From the UHGV virus genome UHGV-0073881: a DNA stretch of 64,000 nucleotides, one strand, 5' to 3'. Under the pieces are notes generated by a model. That model saw only the letters and a list, made by a program, of their open reading frames with translations, did no database searches and was not told where the DNA came from. Below are positions 2,237-63,722 of the stretch, piece after piece. Numbering within the stretch: the first letter of the stretch is position 1; the number at the start of each line of letters is the position of its first letter. This DNA is from a virus. The position numbers and the translations under genes were made by a program.

Positions 2237-3346
2237 ATGGCATTAACTAATTCTGAAAAAAGCAGATTTTTCCTTGCTGACCTGACTGGCGAAGTTCAGT
2301 CTATCCCAAATACTTACGGTTATATTTCCGGTTTGGGTCTTTTCCGTTCTGCTCCACAGACTCAGACAACTTTCCTGATGGACTTGACTGATTGGGACAT
2401 TAGCTTGCTTGACGCTGTAGACCGTACCAGCCGTAAGGCTGAAACAAGCTCTCCAGAGAGAGTTAAGCAGATTAGCTTCCCAATGATGTATTTCAAGGAA
2501 GTTGAAAGCATTACTCCTGATGAGATTCAGGGTGTACGTCAGCCAGGCACTGCAAACGAACTGACTACTGAAGCTATCGTTCGTGCTAAGAAGCTGATGA
2601 AGATTCGTACCAAGTTCGATATTACTCGTGAGTTCTTGTTCATGCAAGCTCTGAAGGGTAAAGTAATCGACGCTAACGGTGTTCTGTACGCTGACCTGTA
2701 CAAGCAGTTCGATGTTACTAAGAAGACTATCTACTTCGACCTTGACAACCCTAACTCTGATATCGATGCGCACATTGAAGACCTGCGTATGCACATGGAA
2801 GACGAAGCTAAGACAGGTACTGTAATCAACGGTGAAGAAATTCATATCGTTGTTGACAGAACTTTCTTCAGTAAGCTTATCAAGCATCCGAAGATTCGTG
2901 ATGCGTATCTGGCTCAACAGACTCCTCTGGCATGGCAACAGATTACTGGCTCTCTGAGAACTGGTGGTGCTGATGGTGTTCAGGCTCATATGAACACGTT
3001 CTACTATGGTGGTGTTAAGTTTGTCCAGTACAACGGTAAGTTCAAAGATAAGCGTAACAAGACCCACACTCTGGTGAGCATTGATGGTGTTGCTCAGGAT
3101 GGAACTGTAGGTGTAGGTCACGCATTCCCTAACGTAGCAATGTTGGGTGAAGCTAACAACATCTTTGAAGTGGCTTACGCTCCATGTCCTAAGATGGGTT
3201 ATGCAAATACTCTTGGTCAGGAACTGTACGTATTTGAATACGAAAAAGACCGTGACGAAGGTATTGATTTCGAAGCTCACTCTTACATGCTGCCATACTG
3301 CACACGCCCTCAGTTACTGGTAGACGTTCGTTCTGACGCTGCTTAA
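2237..3346 (+). CDS. major capsid protein (lambda gpE-like)
   Basis: 369-aa ORF after protease and decoration genes; size and position match gpE-type capsid proteins; the antisense ORF 2243..3280 is taken as spurious. Confidence 0.7.
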   Translation: MALTNSEKSRFFLADLTGEVQSIPNTYGYISGLGLFRSAPQTQTTFLMDLTDWDISLLDAVDRTSRKAETSSPERVKQISFPMMYFKEVESITPDEIQGVRQPGTANELTTEAIVRAKKLMKIRTKFDITREFLFMQALKGKVIDANGVLYADLYKQFDVTKKTIYFDLDNPNSDIDAHIEDLRMHMEDEAKTGTVINGEEIHIVVDRTFFSKLIKHPKIRDAYLAQQTPLAWQQITGSLRTGGADGVQAHMNTFYYGGVKFVQYNGKFKDKRNKTHTLVSIDGVAQDGTVGVGHAFPNVAMLGEANNIFEVAYAPCPKMGYANTLGQELYVFEYEKDRDEGIDFEAHSYMLPYCTRPQLLVDVRSDAA

Positions 3347-3366
3347 GACTTGAAAGGAGGGTTATA

Positions 3367-3816
3367 ATGTGTTATACAGGCGACCCCGCCAATAACCCTC
3401 TTGATAGAGTTAGAATTCTCTGCACCGACACTAATAATGATGAAATTCTTATTGAGCAATCGGTGCTAGAGTGGTTCTACCAAGAATCTGGAAAGGATGA
3501 AAAGAAAGCAGCCATCAAAGCTCTTAAATATTTACTCTTTCAAGTAGCCAAGATGGGAGATGAGAAAGTTGGTGGTGTTTATTTACGTAACTCTTCCAGA
3601 TTCAAATCTCTGAAAGCTGTTTATGACGACCTTATTAAAAGCTCTGTTTCAGGACTACCCTATGTAGGTGGTATTAATCAGTGTGATATTAATATGCGTA
3701 GTCAAAATCCTTGCTCTGTCAAGAAATATACTGAATATGGCGATGCTGCAAGATACGAGGGTAGAGATTACTGCAATCGTGTTAATGGCGTATTTGTAAT
3801 TGAGCGAGATGAATAA
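3367..3816 (+). CDS. hypothetical head-tail joining protein
   Basis: 149-aa ORF with RBS AAAGGAGGG; lies between capsid and tail sheath genes. Confidence 0.4.
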   Translation: MCYTGDPANNPLDRVRILCTDTNNDEILIEQSVLEWFYQESGKDEKKAAIKALKYLLFQVAKMGDEKVGGVYLRNSSRFKSLKAVYDDLIKSSVSGLPYVGGINQCDINMRSQNPCSVKKYTEYGDAARYEGRDYCNRVNGVFVIERDE

Positions 3817-4298
3817 TGGTAAAAAGGGTTATTCACCCCGCTAGAGCTAAATTAGTCGGGGCTATGAAGAACTTGCAAACGGCTAATGCTCAAGTTGGGT
3901 ATTTTCAAGAACAAGGTCAACATAGCTCTGGTTTTTCTTATCCTGCTTTAATGTACTTACACGAAGTTATAGGGGTTCCCTCAGCTTCTGGTAAGGTTTA
4001 TCGTAGGCTGTTTGAAATCACTATGATGCTACACAAACAGACCTTGTTAGAGCAGACTAAGAAGAATCTCTATAAGCAACTAAACAGTCTTACTGTAGAC
4101 CCTTCAAATACCTTGGAAGCATTCGCAAAGAGTGCTCAAGGGGCAATTAAAAGAGGTTTTGGTAATACTGCTATCCTTCCTCCTAACGCACCTTCCACAG
4201 TAGCTAAAAAAGGTTTTAACGCTCCACTTGTGGAAACAGGTGACTTAAGAGAAAACCTTGCTTATAAAATTTCTACTAAAAAGGGCATTAAGAAATGA
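3816..4298 (+). CDS. hypothetical head-tail joining protein
   Basis: 160-aa ORF, start overlaps the upstream stop (translational coupling), between capsid and sheath. Confidence 0.4.
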   Translation: MVKRVIHPARAKLVGAMKNLQTANAQVGYFQEQGQHSSGFSYPALMYLHEVIGVPSASGKVYRRLFEITMMLHKQTLLEQTKKNLYKQLNSLTVDPSNTLEAFAKSAQGAIKRGFGNTAILPPNAPSTVAKKGFNAPLVETGDLRENLAYKISTKKGIKK

Positions 4299-4696
4299 GA
4301 CTCTTAAACAGACACAGCTTTGTAGTTAAACGCAAAGTATCTGAAGACGGCTATTACAATAACGATGGTGATTGGATTGCTTCTCAAGATATTGTTGAGG
4401 TAAACTGCAAAGGTAATATTCAACCTTATATTAAGGGTTCTGTAAAGAATGGTACACAGATTGTTTTACCTGAAGGTATCAGACTGACAGATACAAGAAT
4501 CCTTTTCACTGTAGCTGAGTTAAGAACGTCAGATGACGTTGATTGGACTGAGGCTGATATTGTTATGATTAAAGGACACGAATACGAAGTCTTTATGACA
4601 ATGGATTGGTCAGAACAGTTAGCTCACACATCCCATTATGAATATATCATCATTAGAAGGGATAAGATGAATGCAGTTAGAAACAGCAGAACTTGA
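4295..4696 (+). CDS. hypothetical neck or tail completion protein
   Basis: 133-aa ORF, 4-nt overlap with upstream gene. Confidence 0.4.
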   Translation: MRLLNRHSFVVKRKVSEDGYYNNDGDWIASQDIVEVNCKGNIQPYIKGSVKNGTQIVLPEGIRLTDTRILFTVAELRTSDDVDWTEADIVMIKGHEYEVFMTMDWSEQLAHTSHYEYIIIRRDKMNAVRNSRT

Positions 4697-5270
4697 GAAA
4701 GGGATTGTCAGAACTTTGGTTGATGTTATTGGTCACCGTCTAGCACGAGATAAGAATAACAGACCAAACGTTATCAGGGCATACCCATCTGACAACTCAA
4801 ATGATAAAGGTCTAAAACCTGACCAGCCATTTATTACAGTTTACTGTCAAGATGCTACAACGCCTTATGGGTGGGTACTTGATAAATTCGTGGAAGATGA
4901 TGTAGTTTGTTATAGAATTGCTTTTCAGATTCCAGTGTTAATTACTGTGAATGGTAAAGGTGCTCATAGTATTATGCTAGAGCTAAAACAGAGATTAGAG
5001 ATGAGTTCCACAAGGGATTTATTAGCTGAGGAAACAGGAGCATCTGTTCTTGATACCGGAGCTATCCCAAATGATTACACTTATCTTAATACAGACTTTG
5101 AAAATTCTGCACCTCTTGTTGTAACACTCGTAAAAAATTCAGTATTAAAAGATGAACGTGGAAGTATTATTGAACGTGTCATTGTTGATGGTGAGTTAGT
5201 TTATGAGGAAGGACAGGAGCCACCAGAATATACTATCCATCTAGATGTAGACTCCAAAGGGGTAAAATAA
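4671..5270 (+). CDS. hypothetical tail completion protein
   Basis: 199-aa ORF immediately upstream of the sheath gene. Confidence 0.4.
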   Translation: MQLETAELEKGIVRTLVDVIGHRLARDKNNRPNVIRAYPSDNSNDKGLKPDQPFITVYCQDATTPYGWVLDKFVEDDVVCYRIAFQIPVLITVNGKGAHSIMLELKQRLEMSSTRDLLAEETGASVLDTGAIPNDYTYLNTDFENSAPLVVTLVKNSVLKDERGSIIERVIVDGELVYEEGQEPPEYTIHLDVDSKGVK

Positions 5271-52740: not shown

Positions 52741-52761
52741 GGCTCCTACGGGAGCCTTTTT
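52741..52761 (+). terminator. rho-independent terminator
   Basis: GGCTCC-TACG-GGAGCC followed by TTTTT. Confidence 0.65.
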
Positions 52762-57123: not shown

Positions 57124-57140
57124 TCAGTAAATTCTTAAAA

Positions 57141-57164
57141 GGGCTGCTTCGGCAGCCTTTTTTA
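57141..57164 (+). terminator. rho-independent terminator
   Basis: GGGCTGC-TTCG-GCAGCC followed by TTTTTT. Confidence 0.65.
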
Positions 57165-57224
57165 TTTGTGATTTGTGCAGAATAGTGTATAATTACCCCT
57201 ATGTTTAATAAAATAGGAGAACCA

Positions 57225-58923: not shown

Positions 58924-58935
58924 GGTTACTATATA

Positions 58936-58956
58936 GGCTCCTTCGGGAGCCTTTTT
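58936..58956 (+). terminator. rho-independent terminator
   Basis: GGCTCC-TTCG-GGAGCC followed by TTTTT. Confidence 0.65.
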
Positions 58957-58974
58957 AAATTTCAAGGAGTACTA

Positions 58975-59859
58975 ATGAAGCCAATGTTCAAATATCTTGG
59001 TGGTAAAACAAGAATACTAAGAGAGTATGAGCGTTTAAATGTTTTTCCAAGCCACTGTAAAAACTTCTATGATTTGTTTTCAGGTGGAGGTTCAGTCGCT
59101 ATTTGGGCTTATAACAGATACCCAGAAGCAAAAATATTTATTAATGAGATAAACAAACACATTATAGGTCTTTACACAACTTTCAGAAATGACTATGAAA
59201 ACTTCATGGAAGAATTTGAGTGCTTGTCAAAGAGGTACTTAGCATTACCTATGCAGGAAGAATATGCTGTGAAAGGTCAGCGACATAAACGTTTACGCTA
59301 TAAAATGTATTACAGTGTAAGGGAGGAACTCCTTTCACTTGGTGAAACAGGTATATATGACTATAGGTACTATGCAAGACAATTTTTCCTTCAAAAACTA
59401 AGTTTTGGTGGTGTATGGCAGACCACTAAAGAAATGAAAGGTCACTACGCAACACCTTGTGGGTATTTGCTGGAAGAAGAGATTTTCTTTACAAAAACTA
59501 AAGAGTCACTATCCGAGTTCTACAGTTTTATCACCGATAAAAGGGTGATACTAAGTAGTGAGCCTTATGATATGGTTGACATAAAACATGGAGAAGGTAC
59601 AGTTATTTACTGTGACCCCCCATATATCAACACCAACCAGAAATATGGTGCAAAGTTTGACATTGAAATGTCTGTAAAACTATGTGAAAATATGATTTCT
59701 TGGGGAGAGTTAGGTTCTAAAGTTTTGATGTCAAACTCTCAGTGGGATGGATGGACAAACTTAATCCCTGAAAATTTTAACTTGACAGAGGTTAGCCATT
59801 CATACACAATACATGCACAGAGAAGCAAGGGTGTTAGCGAAGTAATTATTCATAACTAA
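58975..59859 (+). CDS. dam: DNA N6-adenine methyltransferase (Dam family)
   Basis: 294 aa; SAM-binding FxGxG (FYDLFSGGGS) and catalytic DPPY (VIYCDPPYI). Confidence 0.8.
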   Translation: MKPMFKYLGGKTRILREYERLNVFPSHCKNFYDLFSGGGSVAIWAYNRYPEAKIFINEINKHIIGLYTTFRNDYENFMEEFECLSKRYLALPMQEEYAVKGQRHKRLRYKMYYSVREELLSLGETGIYDYRYYARQFFLQKLSFGGVWQTTKEMKGHYATPCGYLLEEEIFFTKTKESLSEFYSFITDKRVILSSEPYDMVDIKHGEGTVIYCDPPYINTNQKYGAKFDIEMSVKLCENMISWGELGSKVLMSNSQWDGWTNLIPENFNLTEVSHSYTIHAQRSKGVSEVIIHN

Positions 59860-59870
59860 GGTATCAAACC

Positions 59871-60683
59871 ATGACAAACAGTGTAAATGTAGCTCTAAAC
59901 GGTAAGATTGTTAAAATGCAGACTAAGATTATCAGCGTAGAAGACTTTATTAATGAGAAACGCTACAAGGAAAATCCACGTCAACGAAATACATTAAAAC
60001 GACTTAAGAGCAAACACCTTAATGGTGATGTATCACCAGACCAAACAGTTGTCCATATTGCTAAATTCGGTAGTTCACTGTTTATTATTGACGGCCACTC
60101 ACGCAGAGAGGCATGGAAAGTTGGGAACCTTACACGACCAGAAGGATTGATTGCAGTTATATACCATGTAAACTCTATACTAGATGTTACAGATTTGTAC
60201 ACTCACTTTGACTCTGAGTTAGCAAGAGAGAAACCTTCAGAAGTCTATTACGGAAACATGAAGATGATTTCCTTCAATCCAAAGTCAGAGTTGATGAAAG
60301 CATCTTGGGCTACTGCTATTAAGTATGTTGCTGCATACTATGGGGTGCAACAGGTTTCTAACACTGAAACAGTCAATCACCTTGATGACTTTAAAAATGA
60401 GATGGAGCAAATTGACTCTCTTGAAGTACAGCTCAAAGGTGTAGTAAACGCAAAACGTAAGTATTCCTCTGGTATTCGTGCAGCAATGCTAATTACATTA
60501 CGGCTATATGGTGATGCTGCATTCTCCTTCTGGGAGGACTATAATGACTACTGCGAAGGTATGTCTAACAAATATGTTACAGAGGCATACCAACTAGCAT
60601 TGCAAGCTGGTCGTGGAGCACAGGCTGACAAGCTATTGATGAATCAAGTAATTTCACTTGTCAACTACTTCAGCCAAGAGTAG
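59871..60683 (+). CDS. ParB-like nuclease-domain protein
   Basis: 270 aa; segment FIIDGHSRREAWKVG matches the ParB/Srx N-terminal box (hydrophobic-x-DG-x-x-RR-x-A); directly downstream of dam. Confidence 0.45.
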   Translation: MTNSVNVALNGKIVKMQTKIISVEDFINEKRYKENPRQRNTLKRLKSKHLNGDVSPDQTVVHIAKFGSSLFIIDGHSRREAWKVGNLTRPEGLIAVIYHVNSILDVTDLYTHFDSELAREKPSEVYYGNMKMISFNPKSELMKASWATAIKYVAAYYGVQQVSNTETVNHLDDFKNEMEQIDSLEVQLKGVVNAKRKYSSGIRAAMLITLRLYGDAAFSFWEDYNDYCEGMSNKYVTEAYQLALQAGRGAQADKLLMNQVISLVNYFSQE

Positions 60684-60689
60684 TACACA

Positions 60690-60710
60690 GGCTCCAGAAG
60701 GAGCCTTTTT
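60690..60710 (+). terminator. rho-independent terminator
   Basis: GGCTCC-AGAA-GGAGCC followed by TTTTT. Confidence 0.65.
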
Positions 60711-60852
60711 CGTTTATGTAAGGGGTACATTATGATTAAAGTTATCAAGATAATACCATCATTGGTAATGCTCATAGTAGGGGTAGGTATTATACTTATG
60801 CTTTGCCCTGCTTTTTGGCCTTTTATCTTATAATAGTCTAGGAGATTGACAA

Positions 60853-62930: not shown

Positions 62931-63722
62931 ATGGGTATTGTAAAAATTATCAAAGGGGATATCTTTGAAGCTTTTGACAATCAGAAGTTTGATATTATTG
63001 GTCACGGTTGCAACTGCATGAATCTTATGGGTGCAGGGATTGCAGCAACAATTGCAAAACGTTACCCAAAAGCTTATGAGACTGACCAAGAAGTCTACAA
63101 CCTGTTTGGTAAAGACCACAAACCAGTAGCTTTAATGCTTGGAAATCTTAGTGTAGCGCGTTTTAAGCAGGGTCGTATTGCTAACCTATACACTCAGTTA
63201 GTTACTGGTAAAGATGCCCGTTACAATGCTTTAGAGGCTGCTTTAGAGCGACTAAACAACTACTGCAAAGTCAATCAGCTTAAGAAGGTTGGCTTACCAA
63301 TGATAGGTGCAGGGATTGGTGGTCTTGATGGTATGGCTGTGCTATCTATCATTAACCAGACCATGAAGGATGTTGATGTTTACATGTACATCTATGAAGA
63401 TAAGATGTTCAAGGAACTGACTAATCCTAAGTCTGGTTGGGAGAATCACAGTGAACCACAATTCTTCGATGGTGTTGCAAAGGTTGAAGAAGATGTAGTT
63501 ACCCTGTGGGTGAAGCGTAAAGGGAAGGTACATAAAAGTAACCCTCCGGTTGAGAAGTATTCTCTAAGTAACGCTCTAGTTACCCACCCGTTGGCAGGGC
63601 ATTGTATGAGAGGTGTAACATTTGGTGATGATGCTAATGTGTATATCCTTGCAAGCAACGACAAAGATGCTGAGGAAGCACTTTCCTGTGAAGTGATTAA
63701 GTTTGTAGAAGCACGTAACTAG
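62931..63722 (+). CDS. macro-domain-like protein (ADP-ribose binding/processing)
   Basis: 263 aa; N-terminal KGDIFEA ... FDIIGHGCNCMNLMGAGIAATIAKRYP and later VGLPMIGAGIGGLD resemble the two glycine-rich loops of macro domains. Confidence 0.45.
   Translation: MGIVKIIKGDIFEAFDNQKFDIIGHGCNCMNLMGAGIAATIAKRYPKAYETDQEVYNLFGKDHKPVALMLGNLSVARFKQGRIANLYTQLVTGKDARYNALEAALERLNNYCKVNQLKKVGLPMIGAGIGGLDGMAVLSIINQTMKDVDVYMYIYEDKMFKELTNPKSGWENHSEPQFFDGVAKVEEDVVTLWVKRKGKVHKSNPPVEKYSLSNALVTHPLAGHCMRGVTFGDDANVYILASNDKDAEEALSCEVIKFVEARN

Follow-up and report, generated by a model that had tools for sequence, protein, structure and literature searches.

Why should a phage of the virulent type keep a ParB-like gene, and why directly behind the gene of a DNA methyltransferase? 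The question is raised by a two-gene locus (positions 58,975 to 60,683) in the virus genome UHGV-0073881, of which a stretch of 64,000 nucleotides (64 kb; hereafter the window) was analyzed. The window derives from a Felix O1-like myovirus (Ounavirinae) of the Felixounavirus type. The first open reading frame of the locus (ORF1) specifies a D12-class N6-adenine methyltransferase and the second (ORF2) a protein of an unannotated phage family. The two reading frames, the FxGxG and DPPY motifs of the former, the gap of 11 nt and the ParB/Srx-type box of the latter are all as the initial annotation described them. The analysis establishes the family of the methyltransferase, the ParB/Srx fold of its neighbour, the conserved motifs, the cassette nature of the pair and a statistical association between the ORF2 family and methyltransferases of diverse kinds. 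The reading that we favour, with a probability of about 45%, is that ORF2 binds a nucleoside triphosphate (NTP) and, as a ParB-fold protein, assists or activates the methyltransferase encoded beside it.

A functional association emerges from the genomic context of the ORF2 relatives. Such relatives are encoded in 51 IMG/VR loci, for which the neighbouring genes were called with a simple ORF finder and then scanned against Pfam. The immediate downstream neighbour was an N6_N4 methyltransferase (PF01555) in 11 of 27 cases and an MT-A70 enzyme in 1 of 27, and the immediate upstream neighbour was an SNF2/DEAD-type helicase in about 6 of 23, a Dam enzyme of the PF05869 family in 2 of 23 and an N6_N4 enzyme in 1 of 23; at a single locus the upstream gene encodes a PAPS-reductase/DUF3440 (IbrA/DndC-like) protein. 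When the loci were dereplicated at 80% identity (34 loci) and methyltransferases were counted by a proxy for their motif IV ([DNS]PP[YFWH]), 14 of the 68 genes at positions +/-1 were positive, versus 5 of the 334 genes located three or more positions away on the same contigs (Fisher p=2.7e-8). Moreover, a recurrent sub-clade in uncultivated phages forms a tight, often overlapping triad of an SNF2-like helicase (~455-497 aa), the ParB-fold protein and an N6_N4 methyltransferase, the motif IV of which (SPPF) suggests specificity for N4-cytosine. The ORF2 family is tied in this way to at least four unrelated methyltransferase families (D12, PF05869, PF01555 and MT-A70), and a gamma-class enzyme is probably also among its partners. 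An association that extends over several unrelated families is a classic signature of functional partnership rather than of the common descent of one operon. The proposal in the initial annotation that the pair constitutes a DNA-modification module is thus supported by relatives that adjoin unrelated methyltransferases more often than chance would allow.

The pairing is found a second time, independently, within the same genus. Phages GEP101 (locus 2926-4955) and ESCO56 (locus 199-2234) have a comparable cassette at another hot spot, likewise flanked by terminators and located between the rIIB and SLT genes. It comprises genes for a 299-aa methyltransferase-like protein with an NPPF motif and for a distant ORF2 paralogue of 279 aa, as well as an ORF of 77 aa. 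The methyltransferase-like gene differs from ORF1 and shows a weak match to N6_Mtase, and the paralogue is 22-27% identical to ORF2. This second cassette is absent from the window, where the matching empty site lies at 57124-57200. The structure of the operon in the window also supports a joint function: the genes are on one strand, in different frames, share their terminators and are separated by the 11 nt from the ORF1 stop to the ORF2 ATG (59860-59870). In fact, a TAAGG sequence ahead of ORF2 overlaps the stop of ORF1, as read from the sequence, and therefore the translation of ORF2 is probably coupled to that of ORF1.

The family to which ORF2 belongs has so far escaped annotation. The protein matches phrog_2615 (E=8e-68; 'unknown function') and has no match in Pfam, NCBIfam or PADLOC; the public records for its relatives read 'hypothetical' or, spuriously, 'occlusion protein'. 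A word-indexed protein search had given only two close relatives, whereas an exhaustive HMMER search yielded 487 representatives of clusters at 50% identity with E<=1e-3, and 147 with E<=1e-10, most of them 250-330 aa in length. Among cultured phages the family occurs in Felixounavirus, in Kolesnikvirus-like phages of Erwinia and Salmonella, in T4-like cyanophages and in one Rhizobium phage. A narrow pattern recovered 4 bacterial loci from 185,579 species genomes (an earlier scan gave none), and a search of plasmids returned one weak match only. The family is therefore large and, in practice, restricted to phages. A kinship with the ParB homologues of plasmid leading regions was also considered, and is unsupported given the essentially empty plasmid search.

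A scan of 87 sampled members gave no Pfam match to ParB (PF02195), DndB or DUF262, neither at E<=0.01 nor at E<=10. A methyltransferase domain was absent from all 87, a helix-turn-helix (HTH) was undetectable in ORF2 and in 86 of the 87, and no informative fused domains were found in the longer members. The family profile found nothing among the sequences of the PDB. A phmmer search of the PDB with ORF2 did return designed TIM barrels (E~3e-6), which we consider spurious because repeats inflate the score and each individual match has E~10. What the members do have in common is the consensus …DNPxQRDTE…HL…SP…KLDGHTRxxLW…P…LYxHFD[NS]xxAxET…, in which (in ORF2 numbering) G75 and R78 are invariant in the 87 relatives and R39, D74, H76, W82 and Y110 are conserved in at least 90%. 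When the family was aligned to the N-domains of 10 plasmid ParB proteins with hhalign, the similarity was marginal (P=0.048, probability 1%), and the register was the expected one, with NPRQR on NPyQPR and DGHSR on GERR. The position of the Glu in GERR is taken in the ORF2 family by the near-invariant His76 of the DGH[ST]R box.

The relation to ParB is seen more directly in the predicted structure. The very confident AlphaFold2 model based on the family alignment (predicted local distance difference test score, pLDDT, 95; predicted template modelling score, pTM, 0.83) consists of an N-terminal alpha/beta domain followed by an all-helical domain. A Foldseek comparison with the PDB put the ParB-CDP structures of B. 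subtilis (6sdk, E=3e-4) and M. xanthus (7bnk) and PadC (6ryk) on top; pNOB8 ParB-N, KorB and sulfiredoxin were also matched, with sulfiredoxin and SspE ranking lower. Among viral models the first matches were uncharacterized members of the family itself, followed by DndB-like, GmrSD-N (DUF262) and 'ParB-like nuclease' proteins. The helical C-terminal domain had no convincing fold match and corresponds to no known domain. The model thus places the N-domain in the ParB/Srx superfamily at the level of the fold, and the ParB fold implied by the initial annotation is indeed recovered upon structure prediction. Its 'ParB-like domain' stands as a statement on fold and not as one on recognizable sequence homology, considering the missing Pfam ParBc match and the marginal profile alignment. 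As judged from the aligned motifs, ORF2 retains counterparts of the Arg residues that bind phosphate in the CTPase ParBs and of their Box-I Gln, the roles of which have been listed (PMC13229309).

The comparison with related phages revealed that the pair is an accessory, moron-like cassette flanked by terminators, and not a part of the core machinery of the phage, a point that the initial annotation had missed. A 2.9-kb region around the locus matches 258 phage records, chiefly Felixounavirus phages of E. coli, Salmonella, Shigella and Citrobacter; the whole pair is present in 14 of these and ORF1 alone in one more (ESCO56). Phages tootiki, JLBYU28 and REP7 are examples of cassette carriers. 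In Mijalis, Moogle and GEP101 the site is empty: only one copy of the terminator, the same as the upstream one, separates the phrog_2267 gene from the i-spanin gene. Alignment of filled and empty sites defines the insert as the ribosome-binding site, ORF1, ORF2 and a second copy of the terminator, bracketed by a direct repeat of ~22 nt that consists of the terminator itself. The upstream copy, which marks the left edge of the cassette, is the ancestral one that stands behind the phrog_2267 gene, and the downstream copy marks the right edge. Both genes are under purifying selection, as compared to phage HMD-P8 the synonymous and non-synonymous codon differences number 49 and 18 for ORF1 and 72 and 15 for ORF2. 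In ESCO56 (locus 4956-5109) ORF2 carries an internal deletion; the final ~100 nt of the gene persist, together with the terminator, behind an intact Dam gene. In Shigella phage Tf ORF2 is split or truncated to 243 aa. Near-identical Felixounavirus Dam/ORF2 sequences were also found in records named 'Campylobacter phage A132/A126' and in a 'Staphylococcus hyicus' contig; these entries are probably mislabelled or contaminated.

ORF1 is, judging from its sequence, a genuine D12-class (alpha) N6-adenine methyltransferase that looks active. Its residues 7-279 span the complete PF02086 profile (positions 1-253 of 253; E=1.4e-22, 81.1 bits with a cut-off of 22), it matches phrog_56 (E=2e-49) and PADLOC MTase_II as well, and it aligns over its full length to DpnM and T4 Dam. 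The name Dam, as given in the initial annotation, is appropriate for the class and not for the subfamily, since the NCBIfam 'dam' cut-offs are not reached (101.7 versus 114.85 for TIGR00571 and 25.8 versus 441 for NF008152). In the structures of T4 Dam and E. coli Dam an Arg of the beta-hairpin reads the guanine of GATC. The R-x-N of this hairpin is not kept in ORF1, which has Q or K at the candidate positions; its alignments to DpnM and to T4 Dam differ by three positions here, and the only claim that we draw from them is that no Arg is conserved. GATC, the absence of which went unnoticed in the initial annotation, occurs 0 times in the window, where ~190-227 copies are expected, and 0 times in related Ounavirinae loci, including that of Erwinia phage phiEa21-4, in line with the absence already reported for the genus (PMC4690856, PMC5477317). 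This rules out a canonical GATC 'Dam' role on the phage DNA: a GATC-specific enzyme would find no substrate there, so that any protection of the phage by ORF1 is unlikely to act through GATC. Considering the GATC-free genome together with the unconserved hairpin motif, the target of ORF1 is likely to be a non-GATC site. The window is also strongly depleted in CGCG, GCGC, CCGG, TCGA, GGCC and CTAG, and at least 25 six-base palindromes are wholly absent from it, which indicates a pervasive avoidance of restriction sites.

How could the two proteins work together? According to the reading that we favour, ORF2 would bind an NTP via its NPxQR and GxxR motifs and would assist the co-expressed methyltransferase at the DNA. 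It would load the enzyme onto the double-stranded phage DNA, activate it there or render it processive. The two proteins would then install a protective or regulatory adenine methylation at a non-GATC site, and the pay-off could be the evasion of restriction or of another defence. Besides the enrichment of methyltransferases next to ORF2 relatives, the second pair in GEP101 and ESCO56 and the organization of the operon, the reading is suggested by the invariant and near-invariant residues that fall on the NPxQPR and GERR positions of ParB. There are precedents in the literature. The ParB-CTPase fold is often fused to N6_N4, Methyltransf_23 or MT-A70 domains in phages and prophages, several of these proteins bind ATP or CTP, and the ParB-like DndB accompanies the genes for phosphorothioation (PMC12704722). 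Moreover, a separately encoded phage ParB homologue was found to be needed, in vivo and in vitro on double-stranded DNA, to activate a neighbouring thymine dioxygenase (PMC13229309).

Several observations weigh against a helper function. The GERR Glu required for hydrolysis is replaced by His, and therefore the NTPase chemistry of ORF2 may be different or absent. The homology to ParB is marginal by sequence profile, and matches to the Pfam families ParB, DndB and DUF262 are lacking even at the most permissive threshold used. ORF1 is a D12 enzyme over its full length, includes a target-recognition region and looks self-sufficient, with no obvious need for a helper. The deletion in ESCO56, behind an intact Dam gene, implies that the phage can do without ORF2, and that the methyltransferase perhaps can as well; the paralogous cassette of that phage could compensate for the loss. 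Finally, no methyltransferase is recognizable within +/-2 genes in roughly half of the dereplicated loci of the family, so that the partnership cannot be obligatory.

The main rival to a helper function is that ORF2 would be an enzyme of attack. The pair would then resemble a restriction-modification (R-M) system, in which ORF2 is a ParB-like DNase or nickase that hits DNA lacking the ORF1 mark, be it of the host or of competing phages, and ORF1 shields the phage genome. Non-specific nicking or DNase activity has indeed been reported for the ParB/Srx proteins Bce_0392 ParB-MTase, Osa and GmrS (PMC5512222, PMC3592412). The order of the genes, with the methyltransferase first, and the linkage to several methyltransferase families suit the logic of toxin and antidote, as does the fact that the sole natural loss observed (ESCO56) concerns ORF2 with the methyltransferase kept, and that no Felixounavirus genome has an orthologue of ORF2 without Dam. 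In addition, the conserved D74, H76 and D114 are acidic or His residues that could bind a metal. Nevertheless, none of the established nuclease folds or domains (PD-(D/E)XK, HNH, GIY-YIG or DUF1524) is found in ORF2, which is also without a nuclease match in PADLOC or Pfam, and for a methylation-sensitive nuclease the lack of an adjacent methyltransferase in about half of the family would be hazardous. Furthermore, those separate ParB partners of phage DNA-modifying enzymes that were tested experimentally are activators and not nucleases (PMC13229309). Overall we consider a nuclease role unlikely, yet the most serious of the competitors. It is somewhat less probable that ORF2 has nothing to do with ORF1 and is a factor in replication, recombination or packaging, or an NTP-binding protein of anti-defence, that merely shares 'moron' hot spots with methyltransferases. 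The loci without an adjacent methyltransferase and the loss of ORF2 beside a retained Dam gene would fit this, and members of the family also adjoin genes for RecT, DNA polymerase A, clamp-loader-like ATPases, a metallophosphoesterase and ribonucleotide reductase. However, the enrichment at the +/-1 positions was calculated against distant genes of the same contigs and thus controls for a general location in a 'replication module', the genus has two independent pairs of a methyltransferase and a family member, and the gaps between the genes are tight or overlapping.

Two further possibilities were weighed. ORF2 could regulate genes as a DNA-binding protein of the ParB/KorB/DndB type, possibly by repressing or silencing the cassette or other phage or host genes under the control of an NTP. 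We hold this to be rather improbable, given that an HTH is undetectable in practically the whole sampled family, that the cassette lacks a recognizable promoter of its own between terminator and ribosome-binding site, and that the ties to many methyltransferase families and to SNF2 helicases look enzymatic. A true ParB that partitions a plasmid-like phage genome is favoured by the similarity in fold only, and we exclude a ParABS role for practical purposes: the window has no ParA-type Walker-A ORF, ORF2 has neither an HTH nor a ParB Pfam match, the gene is accessory and missing from ~94% of the related phages, and the family is essentially absent from plasmids. On this point the initial annotation, which saw no use for plasmid partition in a virulent phage, was right.

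The coordinates of the features of the locus are listed in Table 1. Both terminators are called in a terminator scan, so that the pair is indeed bounded by matching GGCTCC...GGAGCC hairpins, as had been noted from the sequence. The GGCTCCN4GGAGCC motif occurs in 3 copies in the 64 kb, versus 0 in 100 shuffled sequences, and the identical repeated terminators may serve as portable homology for the exchange of cassettes. The third hairpin is located at 52741-52756. A sigma-70-like promoter was not called between the upstream terminator and ORF1, and the cassette is therefore presumably transcribed by read-through or from a phage-specific promoter.

Table 1. Features of the methyltransferase/ParB-fold cassette and its boundaries (positions in the window).
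Feature	Position	Strand	Details
Upstream intrinsic terminator	58935..58957	+	hairpin AGGCTCC-TTCG-GGAGCCT at 58935-58952, followed by T5; terminator scan call
Shine-Dalgarno AAGGAG	58962..58967	+	7 nt ahead of the ORF1 ATG; read from sequence
ORF1, D12-class (Dam-family, alpha) N6-adenine DNA methyltransferase	58975..59859	+	294 aa
ORF1 motif I, FSGGG	59077-59091	+	aa 35-39
ORF1 motif IV, DPPY	59614-59625	+	aa 214-217
ORF2, unannotated phage family phrog_2615	59871..60683	+	270 aa
ORF2 N-terminal domain, predicted ParB/Srx fold	59916..60209	+	~aa 16-113
ORF2 NPRQR, Box-I-like	59973-59987	+	
ORF2 DGHSR, GxxR Box-II-like putative phosphate-binding motif	60090-60104	+	within FIIDGHSRREAW
ORF2 C-terminal domain, predicted all-helical	60234..60680	+	~aa 122-270; model secondary structure; family-conserved D182 and F220
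Downstream terminator, duplicate of the upstream one	60689..60711	+	hairpin AGGCTCC-AGAA-GGAGCCT at 60689-60706, followed by T5; terminator scan call

The cassette is flanked upstream by the genes for rIIB, an SLT-like transglycosylase, a PNK-like phosphatase and the phrog_2267 protein, and downstream by those for the i- and o-spanins. Between the downstream terminator and the i-spanin gene lies an ORF for a hydrophobic peptide of 33 aa (MIKVIKIIPSLVMLIVGVGIILMLCPAFWPFIL; 60732-60833, + strand), which is present in the cassette-less phage pEC-M719-6WT.1 and absent from HMD-P8, Mijalis and GEP101; its product could act in the lysis module as a small membrane protein. Further downstream, a 263-aa ORF (62931-63722, + strand) corresponds to a gene labelled 'O-acetyl-ADP-ribose deacetylase' (macrodomain) in related phages, for which a function in counter-defence is possible.

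The methyltransferases of phages are usually seen as self-sufficient anti-restriction enzymes. If ORF2 is indeed a helper, a conserved and separately encoded ParB-fold partner would widen a recent theme known from dioxygenases and fusion proteins, and also from DndB and DpdB, to the ordinary S-adenosylmethionine (SAM)-dependent methyltransferases, and a 'dark' phage family (all 487 clusters of which are annotated as hypothetical) would receive a name and a testable function. A broader generalization can be put forward tentatively, as a possibility that we find rather doubtful: phrog_2615 may represent a hitherto overlooked, phage-specific class of ParB-fold NTP switches. These would serve at least four methyltransferase families, unrelated to each other, as interchangeable subunits for DNA loading or activation, often together with an SNF2-like motor. 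The family may instead represent a new R-M-like type with a ParB-fold nuclease arm. In the case of NTP switches, many 'orphan' methyltransferases of phages would be two- or three-component machines, the activity, processivity or target range of which is set by the ParB-fold partner. The system is experimentally tractable, with E. coli (K-12) and Salmonella as hosts and with natural phages that have the cassette, lack it or have ORF2 deleted, and the GATC-free genome makes the specificity of the ORF1 'Dam' a question that can be answered quickly.

The locus belongs to a known kind, as it combines a ParB/Srx-fold module with a phage DNA-modifying enzyme. What is new is the unannotated family, which is invisible to surveys based on PF02195, is encoded separately, has a DGH[ST]R box and a helical C-domain of its own, and is associated with several classes of methyltransferase, one of these partners being the D12 enzyme of a genome that lacks GATC. 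A comparison with the best-known systems makes this more specific. Type II restriction-modification would imply a cognate endonuclease with a recognized nuclease fold beside ORF1, whereas the fold of ORF2 matches ParB/Srx only. ORF1 has the fold family, the FxGxG and DPPY motifs and the overall length in common with the GATC methyltransferases T4 Dam, DpnM and E. coli Dam, but its similarity to these amounts to ~26-30 bits only, it scores below the TIGR00571 cut-off and the R-x-N of the hairpin is not conserved. ORF2 has the N-terminal fold of the CTP-dependent clamps (canonical ParB, Noc and KorB), with the NPxQ(P)R and GxxR boxes in the same register. It differs from them in having no ParA partner, parS, HTH, recognizable C-terminal dimerization domain or catalytic Glu, and in being an accessory gene of a phage of virulent type. 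The branch of DndB, DpdB and the DUF262 proteins (GmrS, BrxU and SspE) is distinguished by a DGQHR or DGQQR motif instead of DGH[ST]R; moreover, ORF2 has no Pfam DndB/DUF262 match and no fused HNH/DUF1524 nuclease, and its partner is a methyltransferase.

The two closest parallels are found in phages. The ParB-MTase fusions (PF02195 with PF01555, PF13489 or PF05063; e.g. Bce_0392 of B. cereus) likewise combine a ParB/Srx module with a DNA methyltransferase in phage genomes and keep the GxxR motif, and a role in phage-host conflict has been presumed for them (PMC12704722, PMC5512222, PMC3592412). In the window, by contrast, the two are separate genes with an 11-nt gap, ORF2 is unrecognized by PF02195 and has its own helical C-domain of ~150 aa, and the methyltransferase is a D12 enzyme, a class that is missing from the fusion partners reported for phages (PMC12704722). 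The phage ParB activators that are associated with 5mYOX enzymes (e.g. ParB176; PNAS 2026, PMC13229309) differ from ORF2 in that their partner is an iron/2-oxoglutarate-dependent thymine dioxygenase and not a SAM methyltransferase, and in that they are recognizable as PF02195 and close to chromosomal ParB, whereas ORF2 is far more divergent and has a His for the GERR Glu. Like ORF2, however, they are stand-alone ParB-fold proteins encoded beside a post-replicative base-modifying enzyme, without ParA and without an obvious canonical DNA-binding domain, and they have been shown experimentally to activate their neighbour on double-stranded DNA (PMC13229309).

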